Assembly (NCBI RefSeq): GCF_044324785.1
Contig: NZ_CP172127.1
Origin: Escherichia coli
GTDB lineage: Bacteria > Pseudomonadota > Gammaproteobacteria > Enterobacterales > Enterobacteriaceae
DNA length: 64,000 nucleotides
Reading direction: 5' to 3' (one strand)
Part shown: positions 11,886-49,261 of the stretch, piece after piece
Layout of the letters: the number at the start of each line of letters is the position of its first letter
Position numbering within the stretch: the first letter of the stretch is position 1
Notes under the pieces: model-generated
The model's database searches: none
Seen by the model: the letters and a program-made list of their open reading frames with translations, nothing else
What the model was told of the DNA's origin: nothing
Translations under genes and position numbers: made by a program

Positions 11886-11966
<81 letters not shown>

Positions 11967-17074: not shown

Positions 17075-17225
17075 AACTTTGCCTCAGGCATTAGAAATAG
17101 CGCGTTATTGTACACGGATTAATCGCACTACAAAACAGGATCACAAACATCCTCCGCAAACAAGTATTGCAGAGTCCCTTTGTGATCGCTTTCACGGAGC
17201 ATAAAAAGGGTTATCCAAAGGTCAT

Positions 17226-19029: not shown

Positions 19030-20079
19030 ATGGCAACAGGCACGCAGCCCGATGCTGGGCAGATCCTCAACTCGCTGATTAACAGTATTTTGTTAATCGA
19101 TGACAACCTGGCGATCCATTACGCCAACCCCGCCGCGCAACAACTGCTCGCCCAAAGCTCCCGCAAATTGTTTGGTACACCGTTACCGGAACTGTTGAGC
19201 TACTTCTCATTAAATATCGAGCTGATGCAAGAAAGTCTGGAGGCGGGGCAAGGTTTTACCGATAACGAAGTGACGCTGGTCATCGACGGGCGCTCGCATA
19301 TCCTTTCTGTGACGGCCCAGCGTATGCCGGACGGCATGATCCTGCTGGAGATGGCACCGATGGATAACCAGCGCCGCTTAAGTCAGGAACAGCTACAGCA
19401 CGCCCAGCAGGTTGCTGCCCGTGATTTAGTGCGCGGCCTGGCACATGAGATTAAAAATCCGCTTGGCGGTTTACGTGGCGCGGCGCAGCTACTCAGCAAA
19501 GCATTACCTGACCCGTCACTACTGGAATATACCAAAGTGATTATCGAACAGGCGGACCGGCTGCGAAATCTGGTCGACCGTCTGTTGGGGCCGCAGCTGC
19601 CCGGTACGCGCGTTACCGAAAGTATTCACAAAGTAGCTGAACGCGTGGTAACGCTGGTGTCGATGGAACTGCCGGACAACGTGCGGTTGATTCGTGATTA
19701 CGATCCCAGCCTGCCGGAACTGGCGCACGACCCGGATCAAATTGAACAGGTCTTGCTGAATATTGTGCGCAATGCGCTACAGGCGCTGGGGCCGGAAGGC
19801 GGTGAAATCATTCTGCGTACCCGCACCGCGTTTCAACTGACCTTACACGGCGAACGCTACCGGCTGGCGGCGCGGATTGATGTGGAAGATAACGGGCCAG
19901 GCATTCCGCCTCATTTGCAGGATACGCTGTTTTATCCGATGGTCAGTGGCCGCGAAGGTGGCACCGGGCTTGGCTTATCCATCGCCCGTAATTTGATTGA
20001 TCAGCATTCAGGCAAAATTGAATTTACCAGTTGGCCAGGTCATACCGAGTTCTCGGTTTACCTGCCTATCAGGAAATAA
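19030..20079 (+). CDS. glnL: nitrogen regulation sensor kinase NtrB (NRII)
   Basis: 349-aa ORF, H-box HEIKNPLGG, recognised. Confidence 0.95.
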
Positions 20080-20090
20080 AGGTGACGTTT

Positions 20091-21500
20091 ATGCAACGAG
20101 GGATAGTCTGGGTAGTCGATGACGATAGTTCCATCCGTTGGGTGCTTGAACGTGCGCTCGCTGGAGCGGGTTTAACCTGTACGACATTTGAGAACGGCGC
20201 GGAAGTACTGGAGGCGCTGGCGAGCAAAACGCCGGATGTGCTGCTTTCAGATATCCGTATGCCGGGAATGGACGGGCTGGCGCTGCTCAAGCAGATTAAA
20301 CAGCGCCATCCGATGCTTCCGGTCATCATTATGACCGCACATTCCGATCTGGATGCTGCCGTCAGCGCCTATCAACAAGGGGCATTTGATTATCTGCCCA
20401 AACCGTTTGATATCGACGAAGCCGTGGCGCTGGTTGAGCGCGCCATCAGTCATTACCAGGAACAGCAGCAGCCGCGTAATGTTCAGCTTAACGGCCCAAC
20501 GACCGATATCATCGGCGAAGCGCCAGCCATGCAGGACGTGTTCCGGATTATCGGTCGGCTTTCACGTTCTTCTATTAGCGTGCTGATTAACGGCGAGTCC
20601 GGCACCGGTAAAGAACTGGTCGCTCATGCCCTTCATCGCCACAGTCCGCGAGCCAAAGCGCCATTTATCGCGCTCAATATGGCGGCTATCCCGAAGGATT
20701 TGATCGAATCCGAACTGTTTGGTCACGAGAAAGGCGCGTTTACCGGCGCGAATACCATTCGTCAGGGGCGTTTTGAACAGGCTGATGGTGGCACATTATT
20801 CCTCGATGAAATTGGCGATATGCCGCTGGATGTGCAGACGCGTTTGCTGCGCGTGCTGGCAGACGGTCAGTTTTATCGCGTTGGCGGCTATGCGCCGGTG
20901 AAAGTGGATGTGCGGATTATCGCTGCCACTCACCAGAATCTTGAACAGCGGGTGCAGGAAGGTAAGTTCCGTGAGGATCTGTTCCACCGCCTGAACGTTA
21001 TCCGCGTTCATCTGCCGCCATTGCGTGAGCGTCGGGAAGATATTCCCCGCCTGGCACGCCATTTTTTACAGGTTGCCGCGCGTGAACTGGGCGTAGAAGC
21101 GAAGTTACTGCATCCGGAAACCGAAGCCGCGCTGACGCGTCTGGCGTGGCCAGGCAACGTGCGCCAGCTGGAAAACACCTGTCGCTGGCTAACGGTGATG
21201 GCCGCCGGGCAGGAAGTGTTGATTCAGGATTTGCCCGGTGAACTGTTTGAATCAACGGTTGCGGAGAGTACTTCTCAAATGCAACCGGACAGTTGGGCGA
21301 CACTTTTAGCGCAGTGGGCAGACAGAGCGCTGCGTTCCGGTCATCAAAACCTGCTTTCCGAAGCGCAGCCTGAGCTGGAGCGGACGTTACTGACGACCGC
21401 GTTGCGACATACGCAGGGGCATAAACAGGAAGCGGCGCGGCTACTCGGCTGGGGGCGTAACACTCTGACGCGGAAGTTAAAAGAGCTGGGGATGGAGTGA
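20091..21500 (+). CDS. glnG: nitrogen regulation response regulator NtrC (NRI), sigma-54 activator
   Basis: ORF track starts at 20031; likely start ATG 20091 ([12 protein letters not shown]), 469 aa; Walker A GESGTGKE. Confidence 0.95.
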
Positions 21501-21611
21501 TTCACGGCTTGTGTGTAAAGATTGATTATTGAGCGCAAATTGCTGGTATTTTGCGCTTTACTGTTCCGATAAGTTCAGTATGATCTTGCCCGGAAAACGG
21601 GGAGAGTCATT

Positions 21612-21722
21612 ATGCTGGAATCAATAATTAATCTGGTATCGAGTGGCGCAGTTGACAGCCACACACCGCAAACTGCCGTTGCTGCCGTGCTGTGTGCCGC
21701 GATGATTGGGCTGTTTAGTTGA
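21612..21722 (+). CDS. yshB: small hydrophobic protein (36 aa) MLESIINLVSSGAVDSHTPQTAVAAVLCAAMIGLFS
   Basis: Short ORF below the track cutoff; matches my recollection of YshB between glnG and hemN. Confidence 0.5.
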   Translation: MLESIINLVSSGAVDSHTPQTAVAAVLCAAMIGLFS

Positions 21723-21755
21723 GTTTCAGATTGCTGATGAAGTGCTCTTTGTTCA

Positions 21756-21845
21756 TGCCGGATGCGGCGTGAACGCCTTATCCGGTCTACAAAAGCAATA
21801 TTTTCAACAGGTTTTGTAGGCCTGATAAGCGTAGCGCATCAGGCA
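21756..21845. repeat. REP/BIME palindromic units
   Basis: TGCCGGATGCGGCGTGAACGCCTTATCCGG and GTAGGCCTGATAAGCG..CATCAGGCA read directly. Confidence 0.8.
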
Positions 21846-21911
21846 ATCTTGTTCTCAGCACATTGATGGCGCTTTCGTTTTCTACTTTGTAAACGAAGCG
21901 CCATTCACTAT

Positions 21912-23285
21912 TTAAATCACCCGAGAGAACTGCTGCATCCGCGCTTTCTGGCGCAGATAGGTATCAAAGCACATGCAAATGTTGCGGATCAGCAAGCGAC
22001 CTTTCGCCGTCACCTGTATTCCCTTCTCATCCACATCCACCAGCCCATCTTTTGCTAACGGGGCGAGCAGCTTGAGATCTTCCGCAAAGTAATCAGCGAA
22101 GTGCAAATCCCACTGTTTCTCAATAGGGGCGTAATCCAGACGGAAGTTGCAGATGAGCGACTTAATCACATCGCGGCGAATACAGTCATCACGCGTTAGC
22201 GCAATACCACGCCACAGCGCATTGCCTTGTTCATCCACTTGCTGATAGTACTGCTTCAACTCTTTCTGGTTCTGCGCGTAGCAGTCGCCAATCATGCTGA
22301 TGGCGGAAACGCCCATCCCCAGCAGATCGGTATCGCCCTGAGTGGTGTAGCCCTGGAAGTTACGGTGCAGCACGCCTTCACGCTGGGCCACCGCCAGCTC
22401 GTCATCCGGACGGGCAAAGTGATCCATACCGATAAACTGATAGCCCGATTGCGTCAGGAAGGCGATGGTTTCCTGCAGGATATCGAGTTTTTGCTGCGGA
22501 CTCGGCAGGTCAGCATCTTTGATTTTGCGCTGAGCAGCAAAAATGGTCGGCAGATGCGCGTAGTTAAAGACACTCAGACGATCGGGGTTCAGCTCCGCCA
22601 CGCGTTTCAGGGTAAAAGCGAAACTCTCCGGCGTCTGTTTCGGCAGGCCGTAAATCAGGTCGATGTTGGTGGAGGTAAAACCAATCTCACGCGCATGGTT
22701 AAGCAGTGCAAAGATGAACTCTTCATCCTGCTCGCGGTTAACCAGACGTTGCACTTCTTTGTTGAAGTCCTGCACGCCCATGCTCAGGCGATTAAAGCCC
22801 TCGGCGCGTAAATGATCGAGTACATCCAGTTCGATTTCGCGCGGATCGACTTCGATCGAAATCTCCGCATCGGCATTGAACTGGAAGTTTTCGCGCAGCA
22901 GCTTCATCAGACGGCTGATTTGCGCTTTGTTCAGATACGTCGGCGTACCACCGCCCCAGTGCAGCTGGCTCACCTTGCGCCCGGCAAAAAGCGGTGCACG
23001 ATGGACGATTTCTTGCTCCAGCGCGTCCAGATACTGATCGGCCTTGTGCTGCTGGCGAGTAACAATCTTATTGCAACCGCAGAAGTAACAAAGCTTATGG
23101 CAGAACGGAATATGTACGTAGAGAGATAATGGACGCTCAGGATAGCGCGCCACGGCTTGTAAAAACGCCTGTTCGCCGAAGTCTTCTGAAAACTCCAGCG
23201 CGGTCGGGTACGAGGTGTATCGTGGCCCGGAATAGTTATATTTCTGGATCAGGGCCAGATCCCAGTCGATTTGCTGTACAGACAT
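21912..23285 (-). CDS. hemN: oxygen-independent coproporphyrinogen III dehydrogenase (radical SAM)
   Basis: ORF track starts at 23291; ATG at 23285 gives MSVQQIDWDL; CxxxCxxC radical-SAM motif (CHKLCYFC). Confidence 0.93.
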   Translation of the reverse strand: MSVQQIDWDLALIQKYNYSGPRYTSYPTALEFSEDFGEQAFLQAVARYPERPLSLYVHIPFCHKLCYFCGCNKIVTRQQHKADQYLDALEQEIVHRAPLFAGRKVSQLHWGGGTPTYLNKAQISRLMKLLRENFQFNADAEISIEVDPREIELDVLDHLRAEGFNRLSMGVQDFNKEVQRLVNREQDEEFIFALLNHAREIGFTSTNIDLIYGLPKQTPESFAFTLKRVAELNPDRLSVFNYAHLPTIFAAQRKIKDADLPSPQQKLDILQETIAFLTQSGYQFIGMDHFARPDDELAVAQREGVLHRNFQGYTTQGDTDLLGMGVSAISMIGDCYAQNQKELKQYYQQVDEQGNALWRGIALTRDDCIRRDVIKSLICNFRLDYAPIEKQWDLHFADYFAEDLKLLAPLAKDGLVDVDEKGIQVTAKGRLLIRNICMCFDTYLRQKARMQQFSRVI

Positions 23286-23474
23286 GCTCACTCCTTCCGA
23301 TGGCGTCTCTGGCGGCTACGGCGTACCGGCGAATGCCCGTTTCGGGTCATCAACCGGTTGCGCAGCCACTTTTGTCGCCGCGACAACCGCTGTAGTTTAA
23401 CGAATAACCACACCAGATAACATATAACCGGAAGGGTTATCAGCAGAACGGGAAGGCCCACGGCGGCAATTCCG

Positions 23475-23984
23475 TTAGTTGCCCCGCAGCAGACGCATCA
23501 TGTCTTCTTGCTTCTCGTCTTCTTCCTCTTCTTCGTCATCGTCATAAGAGAGGCCGAGTTTCTGCATCAACTCATCAATACGATCCAGTTTGGCATCCAC
23601 CCAGGATTGCTCTTCGGCACTCAGGGTTTCGCCTGCTTCCAGACGTTCCAGCAGCGCATCCAGACGCTCATCCGTTTCCAGTAATTCCAACTCCGCCTGC
23701 GGTGAAAGCATAGGTTTCTCACTCTTCGGTTTGTGCTGTTTGGTGACTTTTTCAGTCACGCCCAATGGAATAGGGGTTTTACTGCCAATACGTGGATCTT
23801 TCGGTGCGTTCTGGCCTTTGCTGCCTGACGTGGTGTTACCGCCCGCTGCGCGGCTGCCCGGCGCATGACCTCGACGTTTTTTCTGACGCTTACGGTCACG
23901 AGCTTCCTGATCCAGCTCCTCGCGTGTTTTTCGACGCGCTTTTGCATGACCTTTGCTGCGTGAGTTTGAAGATGATGGTTTCAT
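23475..23984 (-). CDS. yihI: Der GTPase-activating protein YihI
   Basis: ORF track starts at 24047; likely start at 23984 ([13 protein letters not shown]...), basic N-terminus and acidic C-terminus. Confidence 0.88.
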
Positions 23985-24052
23985 AATGGTTCGTCTTTTA
24001 GCCGTTTTATTCAGTATAGATTTGCGGCGGAATCTAACAGAAAGCAAGCAAA

Positions 24053-24295
24053 GAAAAAAGGCGACAGATTACTCTGTCGCCTTTTTTCCTGACTCATAAC
24101 CCTTAACGGGTCTTACAATCCTTGCAGGCCGCCAACACACCCTGTTTTTCCATTAGCCGGAACAATCCGTGTTGATTCCATTTCCGTTTAATTACGTCTC
24201 CGGACGTTTGTCTTCCTGACAATCCTCTGTCTTCGCCTCCTGGCGCTCCTGACCCTCATCCTGAGTCATTGTTCCTGTTAGCGTCCTCGCTCTAT
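24053..24295 (-). ncRNA. csrC: CsrC small RNA (CsrA-sequestering), multiple GGA motifs, intrinsic terminator at its 3' end
   Basis: Reverse complement reads ATAGAGCGAGGACGCTAACAGGAACAATGACTCAGGATGAGGGTCAGGAGCGCCAGGAGG... ending in GGCGACAG..CTGTCGCC + U-run; matches CsrC as I recall it in the yihI–engB intergenic region. Confidence 0.8.
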
Positions 24296-24565
24296 GGGTG
24301 CTACTTTACGCCTTTGCTTTAAACAAACAATCAACCGCCATCAGTATTTGCACATTTTCAGAGTTTTATATAAAAGCAATTAACTGATTTATATAGCTTA
24401 TTTGACATGCATCGCAGAATTTTCTCTGCTATTTCGCATAAAGACTATCGGCAATGTCTCACAAAGCGTATGGCTTTTACTTACAACGCTCACGCCGAAA
24501 AATCCGCCTTTTATTATGGTTCAGGTATAATCGCCGCAAAGCTTTGACTGACGGAGACGACCGCT

Positions 24566-25198
24566 TTGACTAATTTGAATTATCAACAGACGCATTTTGT
24601 GATGAGTGCGCCTGATATTCGCCACTTACCTTCCGATACCGGAATTGAAGTGGCTTTTGCAGGCCGTTCCAACGCAGGTAAATCCAGCGCGCTGAACACG
24701 CTGACTAACCAGAAAAGCCTGGCTCGTACCTCAAAAACCCCAGGGCGCACCCAGCTTATCAACCTGTTTGAAGTGGCTGACGGCAAGCGTCTGGTTGACC
24801 TGCCCGGCTATGGCTACGCGGAAGTCCCGGAAGAGATGAAGCGCAAATGGCAACGCGCGCTCGGCGAATACCTCGAAAAACGTCAGAGCCTGCAAGGTCT
24901 GGTGGTGCTAATGGATATTCGCCATCCGCTGAAAGATTTGGATCAACAGATGATTGAGTGGGCGGTAGACAGCAATATCGCCGTGCTGGTGCTACTGACC
25001 AAAGCGGACAAACTGGCAAGCGGCGCACGTAAAGCGCAATTGAATATGGTGCGTGAAGCGGTGCTGGCGTTTAACGGTGATGTGCAGGTTGAAACGTTCT
25101 CTTCACTGAAGAAACAAGGCGTGGACAAGCTGCGGCAGAAACTGGATACCTGGTTTAACGAGATGCAGCCTGTAGAAGAAACGCAGGACGGCGAATAA
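24566..25198 (+). CDS. engB: ribosome biogenesis GTPase EngB (YihA); TTG start
   Basis: 210-aa [24 protein letters not shown]..., G1 motif GRSNAGKSS. Confidence 0.9.
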
Positions 25199-25323
25199 TT
25201 TTCTTGCCTTAATGCTTGTGCCGGATGTGGCGTATCCGGCCCGTAAATTCAATAGATTACACTTCTACCGTTGGCCTGATAAACATGGCGCATCAGGCAT
25301 TACGGATCTTTTCTTTCGCCCAA

Positions 25324-25432
25324 TAAAAAACGCCCCAGTCATTACTGACTGGGGCGGCTAAAATATTCAGCCAAATCCGATTACGTGAAGTAAAAGGTCT
25401 GAAAGATAGAACATCTTACCTCTGTACCCTAC
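25324..25432 (-). ncRNA. spf: Spot 42 small RNA
   Basis: Reverse complement reads GTAGGGTACAGAGGTAAGATGTTCTATCTTTCAGACCTTTTACTTCACGTAATCGGATTTGGCTGAATATTTTAGCCGCCCCAGTCAGTAATGACTGGGGCGTTTTTTA. Confidence 0.9.
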
Positions 25433-25579
25433 GCGACTAACTTTACTCTTTTTTGTTCAGTTCAGAAAGCACTTTTTGTAATTTTTTTTCAGTTGTTGCA
25501 TAGGAATTTCTAATAGCCATCACAAAACGTGACAGCTTATGTTGCTTACTTACGAAAAAAGGGCATGTTCAGGTGAATC

Positions 25580-28366
25580 TTAGTGCGCCTGATCCCAGTT
25601 TTCGCCACTCCCCACTTCCACCAGCAGCGGCACATCCAGACGGGTACAGTTTTCCATCAGTTGATGAATCTGCTTCGCGACGGCATCGACATCATCTTTA
25701 TGAACTTCAAATACCAGTTCATCGTGTACCTGCATGATCATACGCACACGCGGTTGCTCAGCCTGTAGCCACGCATCAACGGCAATCATCGCCCGTTTGA
25801 TAATGTCGGCGGCGGTTCCCTGCATTGGCGCGTTAATGGCTGCACGTTCAGCCGCTGCACGACGAGCCCCATTGCTGGATTTGATATCCGGCAGATACAG
25901 ACGGCGTCCGTCCAGCGTTTCAACGTAGCCCTGCTCTTTCGCCTGAGCACGGGTGCGTTCCATATACTCCAGCACGCCAGGGTAGCGTTCGAAGTAAAGG
26001 TCCATGTACTTCTGCGCTTCTTTACGTGGAATGTTCAATTGCCGCGCCAGACCGAAAGCACTCATGCCATAAATCAGACCAAAGTTGATCGCTTTCGCGC
26101 TACGGCGTTGCTCGCTGGTTACGGTTTCCAGTGGCAAACCAAACACTTCTGCCGCCGTAGCCCGGTGGATATCTTTTCCTTCCGCGAATGCGGTCAGCAA
26201 GCCTTTGTCACGCGAGAGATGCGCCATAATGCGCAGTTCAATCTGCGAGTAGTCCGCTGAGACAATCACATAATCCTCTGGCGCAATAAACGCCTGGCGG
26301 ATACGACGACCTTCTTCGTTACGCACCGGAATGTTTTGCAGGTTAGGATCGGTTGACGATAAACGTCCCGTTGCAGTTACTGCCTGGTGATAAGAGGTAT
26401 GCACACGCCCGGTTTTCGGGTTGATCATCAGCGGCAGCTTGTCGGTGTAAGTCGATTTCAGCTTCGCCAGACCACGATACTCCAGAATCACTTTTGGCAA
26501 CGGATAGTCCAGCGCCAGTTCTTCCAGTACCTCTTCCGACGTTGACGGCGCGCCACCCGGCGTTTTCTTCAGCGGTTTAATTCCCTGTTTTTCAAACAGA
26601 ATGGTTTGCAACTGCTTGGTGGAGGAAAGGTTAAATTCTTCACCTGCAATTTCATGCGCTTTCTTTTCCAGCTCAGCCAGACGAAGAGTGAGCTCTTCAG
26701 AATGATTGTGCAGCACTTTCGGATCGATCTTCACACCGTTACGTTCAATGCGTGAAAGCACCGGCACTAGCGGCATTTCGATATTCTCGAAGACGTTCAA
26801 CGGCCCTTTGTGTTTTTGCAGATCCGGCCACATTTTCAGATGCAACTGCAAGGTGACATCTGCATCTTCGGCGGCGTAACGTCCGGCCTCTTCGAGAGCA
26901 ATCTGGTTAAAGGTCAGTTGATTTTTGCCTTTACCCGCAATCTCTTCAAAAGTGATGGTTTTGTGCTTCAACCAACGTTCCGCGAGGCTGTCCATATCGT
27001 GACGCCCGGCAACGCTATTGAGAATGTAGGACTCCAGCATGGTATCAAACGCAATCCCACGCAGCTCAATGCCGTAATTCGCCAGAATACCGCGATCGTA
27101 TTTCAGGTTTTGCCCAACCTTCAGCGCCTTTTCATCTTCCAGCAGCGGTTTTAGCAACTCGAGTGCACGCTCGCGAGAGATTTGATCGGGCGCATCAAGA
27201 TAATCATGAGCAACCGGAATATATGCCGCTACGCCTGGCTCGATAGCAAAAGAAAGCCCGACCAGGTTAGCAGAGATGTTATCAAGGCTGTCGGTTTCGG
27301 TATCAAATGCAAATACCGGCGCTTTTTCCAGCTTCGCAATCCACGCTTTCAGTGTTTCTTCATCAAGGATGGTGACGTAGTTGTCATAAGAAATCACCGT
27401 TGCCGTCACTTCTGGTGCTTCGTCTGCAACACTGGTTTCCTGTGGCTTCGCGGCTGGTTTTGCCCCTTTGGCCTGTAACCATTTGCCCGCTTCGACATCA
27501 GCAGTCCAGCGTTTGAACTCATACTTTTTGAACAGCCCCAACAACTCTTCCGCTGCCGGTTGCTGCACTTCCAGTTGTTCACAGGTCAGCTCCAGTTCAA
27601 CGTCGGTTTTAATCGTCGCCAGCTGGTATGAGAGATAAGCAACTTCTTTGTTTTGCTCGAGCTTCGCTGCCATTGTTTTCGCGCCACGGAAGCTCAACCC
27701 AGCAATTTTTTCTGGCTCGGCATACAGCGTATCCAGGCCGCCAAGACCTTGCAGCAATGCCTGCGCGGTTTTTTCACCGACGCCCGGTACGCCAGGAATG
27801 TTATCAGAGGAGTCACCCATCAGCGCCAGGAAATCGATGATCAGTTCTGGCGGCACGCCGTACTTATTCACCACCTCTTCCGGTCCGAGGATGGTATTCG
27901 TCATGGTATTGATAAGCGTAATATTTGGCGTCACCAGCTGCGCCATATCTTTATCGCCAGTGCTGATCAGCACCGGACGCCCGGCTTTTTCGGCTTCGCG
28001 CGCCAGAGTACCGATAACGTCGTCCGCTTCTACGCCAGAAACCGCCAGCAGCGGCAGTCCCATCGCTTTAACCATCGCGTGCAAGGGTTCGATTTGTGCA
28101 CGCAGATCGTCCGGCATTGGTGGGCGATGTGATTTGTAATGTTCAAACAGTTCATCACGAAAGGTTTTTCCCTTGGCGTCAAAGACCACCGCTGCATGCG
28201 TCGGTTTATATTGCATGATCAGACTGCGCAGCATGTTGAGGACACCATACATCGCACCGGTCGGCTCGCCTGCGCTGTTAGTCAGCGGGGGAAACGCGTG
28301 ATATGCGCGATAAAGATAAGATGAACCATCTACAAGGATAAGTGGATTTTGGGGGATCTGAACCAT
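25580..28366 (-). CDS. polA: DNA polymerase I
   Basis: 928-aa ORF, recognised. Confidence 0.97.
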
Positions 28367-28729
28367 AATGTCCGTGCCTGTTTATCAGATTATGGGTAAA
28401 GGATGCCACAGACAGGATGAAAACATGAGTTTTTCACCGCTTTTCGTGAAAATCTTTTGTAGATCTTCTGGATCGCTCGCAAATCGTCATGTGGATAACT
28501 TTGTGCATAAATTATTTACATCGCTTTTAATTTATTATCATGCTTTTTACAGCATGATGTTTGTCTTTGTTTTTCATGAAGTTAAAAATAAGACCATCCC
28601 TAATAATTGAGATAATGGGATTTTTTCTAATGTGGATAGATATGAATTATTTTTCTCCTTAAGGATCATCCGTTATTTGGGTCGTTTTCTGCTAAAATCT
28701 GCGCCTTGCGCTTCTTTAGCGCACTGTCT

Positions 28730-29662
28730 ATGGCTAACCTTTTGAATAAATTCATTATGACGAGAATACTCGCTGCGATAACCCTTTTGCTGAGTATCGT
28801 ATTGACCATTTTGGTCACTATTTTTTGCTCCGTCCCGATCATCATTGCCGGGATTGTAAAACTATTGCTCCCTGTGCCAGTCATTTGGCGAAAGGTTTCG
28901 CGGTTTTGTGATTTTATGATGTATTGCTGGTGTGAAGGTCTGGCGGTATTACTGCATCTGAACCCACACCTGCAATGGGAAGTTCACGGGCTGGAAGGGT
29001 TAAGTAAGAAGAACTGGTATCTGCTTATTTGTAACCACCGTAGTTGGGCAGATATTGTCGTACTGTGCGTGCTGTTTCGTAAGCACATTCCGATGAATAA
29101 ATATTTCCTCAAGCAACAGCTGGCCTGGGTGCCATTTCTTGGCCTAGCATGCTGGGCGCTGGATATGCCGTTTATGAAGCGTTATTCCCGCGCTTATTTA
29201 TTACGTCATCCGGAGAGACGTGGTAAAGATGTTGAAACTACTCGGCGTTCTTGTGAAAAGTTTCGCCTGCATCCCACCACCATTGTCAATTTCGTTGAAG
29301 GCTCCCGTTTCACGCAAGAAAAACATCAGCAAACGCACTCCACTTTTCAAAACTTGTTGCCACCAAAGGCGGCAGGCATTGCGATGGCGCTAAATGTACT
29401 GGGTAAACAATTCGATAAACTGCTTAATGTTACGCTGTGTTATCCGGACAATAACCGTCAGCCGTTCTTAGATATGTTAAGCGGTAAACTGACGCGAATT
29501 GTCGTACATGTGGATTTACAGCCTATTGCCGATGAGTTACATGGCGACTACATCAATGACAAAAGCTTTAAGCGCCATTTTCAGCAATGGCTGAACTCAC
29601 TGTGGCAGGAAAAAGACCGACTTCTGACGTCTCTCATGTCATCACAGCGTCAGAATAAGTAA
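28730..29662 (+). CDS. yihG: PlsC-family acyltransferase
   Basis: ORF track starts at 28706; likely start 28730 ([10 protein letters not shown]...); NHRSWxD acyltransferase motif. Confidence 0.85.
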
Positions 29663-29702
29663 GTTTTACTCGCCTCTGAATGAGCAGAGGCGAGTGAGTA
29701 TT

Positions 29703-31133
29703 TTAATGAACAAAACGTCCGGCACGAGACATAAATTCTTCTTCGCTCATTTCCTGTCCGTTAAAAACAACTTTACCCGGTGTATAACGCAGTTGCAGCG
29801 AGGCGGTATTGTTGTCAATCGTGATTAACTGAAACATCTGACCTAATGTCATCATCCCGCTGATTTGTTTATCAGCCCGCTTTTGCGCTTTTTCAGCATC
29901 CATTCCTTCAGATAAATTAAGCTGTTTTGCGGTTTCTGTGACGACATTAAGCGGTAACTTCACATCAAAATTGAGCGATTTAATATCTTTGTTTGTGGAT
30001 GATGAGGATTTGGCTGGGTCGGCAATACTGATATCCAGATTGGCATTTAGTTCGCCGAGTGCATTCTTCCATCTTACCGGTTGTTTAATGGTCGGCTCAC
30101 TTTTTTGTAATAACGGTAAATACTCTTTGAACAATGCAGCATTCACTTCTTGCAGAGCAACTTCATCGTTTGCTAACTCAGGGTGTGCAGCAAGCTGCTT
30201 CTGCATCGCAATGTTATACTGGATGACAAATTGGCGCACCGCTGAGGGATCAATAGATTCAGCAATCAATGACCACTCACCACTACCGAGTTGCTGATTC
30301 CCTTTTGTTAACTTATCAAGTTCGTAGGTCAGATTGACATTGATATAATCTTTGTCTTTAACGCGATCCAGCCTGGTTTTTGCAACGAAAGCATCGATTT
30401 GGGCAACGTCTTCCCCGTGATTGATAATGTTAATCTGGTTAAATTTCGACTCGCTTTCGCCAACCGGAAATTTCTTTTCTTCTAATCGCGTTAGAGAATC
30501 AATGGTAAAACTTTTCGCCGTTACTTTGTTCAATGGCGATAGTTCTAAAACAATATCTTCGACTTTGCCTTCAATATCCAGGTTAGATAATGAACTACCA
30601 TCACCATTAAAAGTAAACTGGCCCTTACCAAAGGAAAACTTTCCATACTCTGCAGGGGCAACATCTAATGTCGTGGAGAATGAGCTACCAAACGCGAATC
30701 GCAATGTCGCTTCCACGGGCGATTTATTTTTTGCGGCGATAAATAGCGGTTGTGTCAGTTCATTATTCACAAAGTTCACTTTTGCCGCTGCCAGTGCGGG
30801 GATGACATTACCACGCATTAACATTGTGATGGGCAACGGACCGTGCTCAACATCCACATCAAATGCAACTTTCTGGCCTGGCTTGATATTGAGATCGGGT
30901 GCACCGTTATCAAATGTTATTTGCATTTGAAAATGAGAATTAAAAAAGCCTTTGTCAAAGTTTTTATAACTTAACGTCATATCGTAGGCATGTTCACCTT
31001 TCTTTTTAGCATCGTTAAAATCTTTAATAAATTTTTCGACACCAGGCTGAATTTGCGTACCTGTGTACCATGTGCCACCACCCCAGATTACGGCTAACGC
31101 AACAATAACACCTGTAGCTGACTTACGTATCAT
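29703..31133 (-). CDS. yihF: DUF945-family protein
   Basis: ORF track starts at 31175; likely start 31133 (MIRKSATGVIVALAVIWGGG), synteny. Confidence 0.82.
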   Translation of the reverse strand: MIRKSATGVIVALAVIWGGGTWYTGTQIQPGVEKFIKDFNDAKKKGEHAYDMTLSYKNFDKGFFNSHFQMQITFDNGAPDLNIKPGQKVAFDVDVEHGPLPITMLMRGNVIPALAAAKVNFVNNELTQPLFIAAKNKSPVEATLRFAFGSSFSTTLDVAPAEYGKFSFGKGQFTFNGDGSSLSNLDIEGKVEDIVLELSPLNKVTAKSFTIDSLTRLEEKKFPVGESESKFNQINIINHGEDVAQIDAFVAKTRLDRVKDKDYINVNLTYELDKLTKGNQQLGSGEWSLIAESIDPSAVRQFVIQYNIAMQKQLAAHPELANDEVALQEVNAALFKEYLPLLQKSEPTIKQPVRWKNALGELNANLDISIADPAKSSSSTNKDIKSLNFDVKLPLNVVTETAKQLNLSEGMDAEKAQKRADKQISGMMTLGQMFQLITIDNNTASLQLRYTPGKVVFNGQEMSEEEFMSRAGRFVH

Positions 31134-36127: not shown

Positions 36128-36247
36128 ATGCCTGGCAGTTCCCTACTCTCGCATGGGGAGACCCCACACTACCATCGGCGCTACGGCGTTTCACTTCTGA
36201 GTTCGGCATGGGGTCAGGTGGGACCACCGCGCTACGGCCGCCAGGCA
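36128..36247 (-). rRNA. rrfA: 5S ribosomal RNA
   Basis: Exact 120-nt match by eye to E. coli 5S (reverse complement). Confidence 0.97.
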
Positions 36248-36340
36248 AATTCTGTTTCATCAGACCGCTTCTGCGTTCTGATTTAATCTGTATCAGGCTG
36301 AAAATCTTCTCTCAATCCGCCAAAACAGCTTCGGCGTTGT

Positions 36341-39245
<2,905 letters not shown>

Positions 39246-39419
39246 TCACAACCCGAAGATGTTTCACTTCAGAGTTGCGAAAATTTGAGAGACTCACGAA
39301 CAACTTTCGTTGTTCAGTGTTTCAATTTTCAGCTTGATCCAGATTTTTAAAGAGCAAAACTTCGCAGTGAACCTTTGCAGGTACACTCTGAAGTATTTTT
39401 TATTTAATCACTACAGAGA

Positions 39420-39495
39420 TGGTGGAGCTATGCGGGATCGAACCGCAGACCTCCTGCGTGCAAAGCAGGCGCTCTCCCAGCTGAGCTATAGCCCC
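39420..39495 (-). tRNA. alaT: tRNA-Ala (anticodon UGC)
   Basis: Reverse complement GGGGCTATAGCTCAGCTGGGAGAGCGCCTGCTTTGCACGCAGGAGGTCTGCGGTTCGATCCCGCATAGCTCCACCA. Confidence 0.97.
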
Positions 39496-39537
39496 ATAAC
39501 ATGTAGTTAAAACCTCTTCAAATTTGCGGTGCAAATT

Positions 39538-39614
<77 letters not shown>

Positions 39615-39682
39615 GTAGAGGTTTTACTGCTCATTTTCATCAGACAATCTGTGTGAGCACTGCAAAGCACAGTTCTTTAAGG

Positions 39683-41224
<1,542 letters not shown>

Positions 41225-49149: not shown

Positions 49150-49261
49150 TGCCGGATGCGGCGTAAACGCCTTATCCGGTCTACCGATCCTGCACCAATG
49201 TAGGCCTGATAAGACGCGCCAGCGTCGCATCAGGCATCGTGTGCCGAATGCCGGATGCGAC
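49150..49261. repeat. BIME: three REP palindromic units
   Basis: GCCGGATGCGGCGTAAACGCCTTATCCGG, GTAGGCCTGATAAGACGCGCCAGCGTCGCATCAGGCA, GCCGGATGCGAC read directly. Confidence 0.8.

Follow-up and report, generated by a model that had tools for sequence, protein, structure and literature searches.

The genes for two small regulatory RNAs, CsrC (csrC, 24050–24295) and Spot 42 (spf, 25322–25432), both lie on the minus strand of a 64,000-nucleotide stretch of Escherichia coli DNA (the window, by which the whole of the stretch analyzed is meant), in the ORF-free gaps on either side of engB (yihA). The gene order of the locus, hemN-yihI-csrC-engB-spf-polA, is that of K-12, with the window being reverse-complemented. 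The protein-coding genes are hemN (21912–23285, minus strand; HemN has one substitution relative to K-12, H104K), yihI (23475–23984, minus strand; 169 aa, protein identical to K-12), engB/yihA (24566–25198, plus strand; 210 aa from a TTG start, with one amino acid difference from K-12, S198N) and polA (25580–28366, minus strand; 928 aa, protein identical to K-12).

Both RNAs were recovered in a scan with Rfam 15 at gathering thresholds, run first on positions 20000–30000 and then on the whole window. The CsrC model (RF00084) matched 24042–24295 on the minus strand over its full length (model positions 1–255 of 255), scoring 277.9 bits (gathering score 61; E = 1.8e-88), and the Spot_42 model (RF00021) matched 25324–25442, also on the minus strand and over its full length (1–115 of 115), scoring 122.8 bits (gathering score 80; E = 5.7e-25). 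A previous reading of the DNA made from the sequence only (the sequence-only reading) had placed CsrC and Spot 42 on the reverse strand in gaps left empty by the open reading frames, which agrees with where both models match, and the covariance-model check that it proposed returned scores far above gathering for both. In addition, both RNAs fold much better than shuffled sequences, with none of 200 shuffles as good for either.

The annotated K-12 MG1655 region (polA, spf, spfP, yihA, csrC, yihI and hemN) was aligned globally to the reverse complement of the window, and this base-by-base alignment confirms the identity, strand and gene order of CsrC and Spot 42. The identity of the locus to K-12 is 98.7% over 7 kb, and the window is therefore not K-12. 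The same reading had described both RNAs as unchanged relative to K-12, which holds for Spot 42 (111 of 111 bases identical to spf, b3864) and in the strict sense does not for CsrC, where alignment to csrC (b4457) gives one difference in 246, an A to U change at nt 144. The interval 24053–25432, to which the two RNAs had been assigned, extends from the U-tract at which CsrC terminates to precisely the base where Spot 42 begins in K-12, and also encloses the whole of engB/yihA. It is virtually certain that these are the canonical regulatory RNA genes that E. coli carries in its polA-hemN region, both of them transcribed from the minus strand, and everything tested about CsrC and Spot 42 here was known before.

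The most diverged segment of the locus is engB, with 97.2% identity to K-12 compared with roughly 99% for its neighbors. Six of its 18 nucleotide differences fall within 18 bp (24800, 24805, 24808, 24811, 24814, and 24817), five of them at a spacing of three bases and none altering the protein, and this cluster may be a small recombination patch.

CsrC, its control region and nucleotide 144

By the K-12 annotation CsrC is 246 nt long, and it ends in an intrinsic terminator (24051–24090, minus strand) with an 18-pair stem followed by a U tract, which was found by a terminator scan, as a hairpin in the Rfam consensus and in the minimum free energy (MFE) fold. The z-score of the fold is −6.98 against shuffled controls. 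CsrA binds at GGA motifs, most of which lie in the loops of hairpins or in single-stranded stretches (PMC7652899). CsrC carries 14 such motifs, compared with 8.9 ± 2.0 in dinucleotide-preserving shuffles (14 being reached in 19 of 2000), 3.1 expected from the density across the window and two when the other strand of csrC is read. Half of the motifs, seven in number, have no paired base in the MFE fold, and the Rfam consensus sets several in hairpin loops.

The binding site of phosphorylated UvrY at csrC in E. coli has been mapped by ChIP-exo and DNase I footprinting to an 18-nt imperfect inverted repeat, TGTGAGACATTGCCGATA (Zere et al., PMC4682653), and an exact match to this footprinted sequence lies at 24446–24463 on the minus strand, at −168 to −151. 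A TGTAAG half-site (24480–24485, minus strand; −190 to −185) is found 16 bp upstream of the inverted repeat, at the published spacing (PMC4682653).

CsrC is known to sequester CsrA dimers on its GGA sites and to be activated by BarA-UvrY, and as long as a preferred carbon source is available it is degraded via CsrD and RNase E (PMC7652899, PMC4682653). With 245 of 246 bases shared with the K-12 RNA that was studied, the same sequestration of CsrA and the same turnover would be expected here (PMC7652899). Phosphorylated UvrY bound to the inverted repeat at −168 to −151 would activate transcription of csrC, and the resulting RNA of roughly 245 nt would serve as a decoy, capturing CsrA in many copies and titrating it off mRNAs, as published work describes, with its decay probably dependent on CsrD and RNase E.

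The sole difference from K-12 within the two sRNAs, at position 24152 (minus strand), concerns CsrC nt 144, which is U in the window, A in K-12 and G in Salmonella. This nucleotide is directly 5′ of a GGA motif (nt 145–147) that is conserved in all three, and it could thus be proposed that the A to U change alters the function of CsrC, either through the affinity of CsrA for the adjacent GGA or through the local fold, so that the RNA behaves unlike that of K-12. The folding predictions do lend themselves to this, as U144 is paired and the predicted unpaired probability of the nucleotide drops from 1.0 with A to 0.12 with U, and the MFE is −87.7 kcal/mol instead of −86.3 kcal/mol; the change is nevertheless small and local, and the overall architecture is kept. 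Against an effect on function, all 14 GGA motifs, the adjacent one at 145–147 included, are unchanged, and in the Rfam consensus nt 144, at the 3′ edge of a hairpin loop, shows weak conservation. Furthermore, the two alleles are about equally common in the species. Counts made with 31-mers centered on nt 144, for which the 28-base word of megablast matches only genomes with the same allele, found the U allele in 2516 of 5426 complete E. coli genomes and the A allele in 2626. With A and U near-equal in E. coli and G in Salmonella, nt 144 appears free to vary. An altered function for CsrC in this strain is therefore very unlikely, and we hold it to be just as doubtful that A/U at nt 144 constitutes a functional tuning site altering local pairing and the occupancy of one motif by CsrA. 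Were the latter true, it would mean lineage-specific set points of the Csr system, with E. coli split roughly in half. The A144/U144 difference is instead read as a neutral or near-neutral polymorphism.

Spot 42 and the encoded peptide SpfP

Spot 42 is 111 nt long by the K-12 annotation, whilst a length of 109 nt has been published (PMC8916003); from the same 5′ end, a 109-nt RNA would span 25324–25432. The MFE fold (z = −5.08) consists of a 5′ hairpin, an unpaired stretch at nt 49–60, a small hairpin and a terminator hairpin. The last of these is the intrinsic terminator at 25331–25356 (minus strand), with an 11-pair stem that includes eight G-C pairs followed by UUUUUU, as seen in both the fold and the terminator scan.

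Within Spot 42, a 15-codon open reading frame with a UGA stop (25367–25414, minus strand) translates as MFYLSDLLLHVIGFG and occupies the position of K-12 spfP (b4837). Its AUG is preceded by GAGG, and the reading frame is intact and in agreement with both K-12 spfP and the peptide reported by Aoyama et al. (PMC8916003). Spot 42 is thus a dual-function RNA that encodes SpfP, and not purely non-coding.

Transcription of Spot 42 takes place in glucose and is repressed by cAMP-CRP, and together with Hfq the RNA pairs with mRNAs needed to exploit non-preferred carbon sources, for example galK (PMC8916003 and works cited therein). The genes of these targets lie outside the window. SpfP binds CRP and so reinforces catabolite repression (Aoyama et al., PMC8916003). 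These studies concern sequences identical to those of the window, on which grounds Spot 42 here would be an Hfq-dependent RNA, repressed by cAMP-CRP, that silences mRNAs for non-preferred carbon sources, and the 15-aa SpfP translated from it would bind CRP as published.

Repression of spf by CRP is documented in K-12 (PMC8916003), and the upstream region of spf in the window is identical to that of K-12 from −130 to the transcription start. A consensus scan gave a candidate CRP half-match, TGTGATGGCTATTAGA (25509–25524, minus strand), centered at −84.5 from the spf start and with two mismatches, which can be taken as a lead only. It was rejected as evidence for a CRP site, since two-mismatch matches occur in the window at the frequency expected by chance (24 found, 26.9 expected).

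Contents of the two gaps

The yihI-engB gap measures 581 bp, more than the roughly 500 bp of the sequence-only reading, and the engB-polA gap measures 381 bp. The former is made up of 65 bp that separate the csrC terminator from the ATG of yihI, the 246 bp of csrC and a 270-bp control region shared by the divergent csrC and engB. The latter comprises a 123-bp engB-spf spacer, the 111 bp of spf and the 147 bp that lie between the start of spf and the stop codon of polA. Two REP-like palindromes, GCCGGAT..ATCCGGC (25220–25240) and GCCTGAT..ATCAGGC (25274–25298), take up much of the 123-bp spacer. These have arms of only 7 bp and were found by direct pattern search, an inverted-repeat search of the spacer having returned none. 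They are two of six in the whole window, the others being at 11889–11918, 11943–11963, 21820–21844, and 49204–49235. The proposal that the sRNAs explain the gaps was borne out in that sRNA and upstream region, with the two palindromes beside spf, account for each of them.

Neither gap contains an open reading frame of at least 60 aa, except for a mechanical extension of yihI to a TTG at 24047. The start of yihI in the K-12 annotation is an ATG (23984), and the mechanical frame (23475–24047, minus strand) begins 21 codons upstream of it, reaching the base of the csrC terminator.

It could still be asked whether the gaps hold more than the two sRNAs, such as a small protein gene, another sRNA or the remnant of a mobile element, given that csrC covers just 246 of 581 bp and spf 111 of 381 bp, that mechanical open reading frames of 42–49 aa occur in both gaps (three of 42–48 aa in the first and one of 49 aa in the second), and that in many genomes the position of csrC carries a "hypothetical protein" CDS assigned by PGAP. 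The space that is not sRNA is, however, largely taken. UvrY-related sites, including the footprinted one, extend to −190 within the 270 bp upstream of csrC, which must also hold the divergent engB promoter, and the engB-spf spacer is occupied by the two REP-like palindromes. The K-12 annotation has nothing further in the gaps apart from spfP. When both gaps were scanned with Rfam at a permissive cut-off (E up to 1), everything beyond the two true hits was sub-threshold and confined to the two terminators, in line with the earlier advice that the gaps should not be over-interpreted. The 12 matches concerned (a plus-strand partial CsrC, Thr_leader, miRNAs, VrrA and others) were rejected as falling on terminator hairpins, none of them reaching its gathering score.

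The CDS over csrC is likewise better understood as a matter of annotation. A "hypothetical protein" is placed over csrC in all of the E. coli records among the matches listed, spanning 24102–24268 (minus strand) in the coordinates of the window (RefSeq/PGAP records), and both of the E. coli records that were inspected show it as a pseudo-CDS marked "frameshifted; internal stop", on the strand of the sRNA and inside the RNA. A Salmonella record has an intact 74-codon "hypothetical protein" within csrC, WP_001541209.1, which is plausibly the template that PGAP propagates into E. coli. Given its strand and its place inside the RNA, the PGAP CDS over csrC looks like a propagated annotation artifact. 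Further contents in the gaps thus appear highly improbable, and textbook regulatory RNAs together with the regions that control them suffice to explain these two sizeable non-coding gaps in full. As spf is unannotated in most of the E. coli RefSeq records among the matches listed, the spurious csrC pseudogene and the missing spf mean that annotation-based screens for empty intergenic regions will keep flagging this locus.

That the CsrC and Spot 42 genes are silent or decayed here, as pseudo-sRNAs, is hardly conceivable, with Spot 42 identical to K-12 and CsrC one base different, just two differences from K-12 in each of the upstream regions, and the UvrY site and both terminators intact. A scan of 23900–25650 for the strict sigma-70 consensus found no sites, compared with 1.8 expected, and neither sRNA promoter fits that strict consensus; TAAAGT can be seen by eye upstream of both transcription starts. 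This null result does not argue against promoter function, because the upstream regions are nearly identical to those of K-12, in which both RNAs are expressed, and csrC depends on UvrY as an activator.

Elsewhere in the window, the Rfam scan gave gathering-level matches to Erse (RF02757; 56334–56585, minus strand, 315.2 bits), ES222 (RF02755; 17156–17263, minus strand, 133 bits) and StyR-44 (RF01830; 39253–39352, minus strand, 106.9 bits). The best match to the CRP consensus in the window, TGTGATCGCTTTCACG (one mismatch, 17181–17196), falls inside the ES222 match. The StyR-44 match is immediately upstream of the 23S rRNA gene of a complete rRNA operon (36130–41224, minus strand), consisting of 16S (39683–41224), 23S (36341–39245), and 5S (36130–36245) genes and two tRNAs (39541–39614 and 39423–39495). 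From its position relative to polA, this operon would correspond to rrnA of K-12.

Conservation and comparison with known systems

The 2251 bp around CsrC and Spot 42 were matched in 5425 of 5426 complete E. coli genomes, with the best match at 99.6% identity and no exact copy, so that the DNA of the window belongs to E. coli. Each of the two sRNA genes is present in 5424 of the 5426, spf with at least 99% identity in 5423 and csrC in 5359. Two places labeled as plasmid carry the locus among the E. coli genome matches. Mobile or plasmid-borne copies were considered and rejected, as three of the four E. coli matches in PLSDB are 4.8–4.9 Mb long and hence mislabeled chromosomes, and the fourth is 1.0 Mb. 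Two listed Salmonella "plasmids" (148 and 194 kb) carry hemN-polA chromosomal DNA including polA, and appear to be mislabeled or misassembled chromosomal DNA.

The closest known system is K-12 itself. CsrC of K-12 (RF00084, clan CL00106) belongs to the CsrB/RsmB family of CsrA-sequestering sRNAs, and apart from the common species-level polymorphism at nt 144 the RNA of the window shares its position between yihA/engB and yihI, strand relation, length, terminator, 14 GGA motifs, UvrY inverted repeat and TGTAAG half-site. Spot 42 is likewise the same as in K-12 in its position between polA and yihA/engB, three-hairpin fold, terminator and SpfP. In the 147 bp upstream of spf, the window differs from K-12 by one substitution and one 1-bp insertion (25574 and 25563), both by the polA stop and at least 131 bp upstream of the spf transcription start.

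The order hemN-yihI-csrC-yihA-spf-polA is also shared by the Salmonella enterica record, in which the Rfam models score 313.3 bits for CsrC and 123.5 bits for Spot_42. In the CsrC of S. enterica, scattered substitutions and an insertion of 1 nt are concentrated in the 3′ half, the GGA motifs are largely retained, and the position of nt 144 is G. Its Spot 42 differs from that of E. coli in the terminator loop only, even though identity across the entire locus is about 83%.
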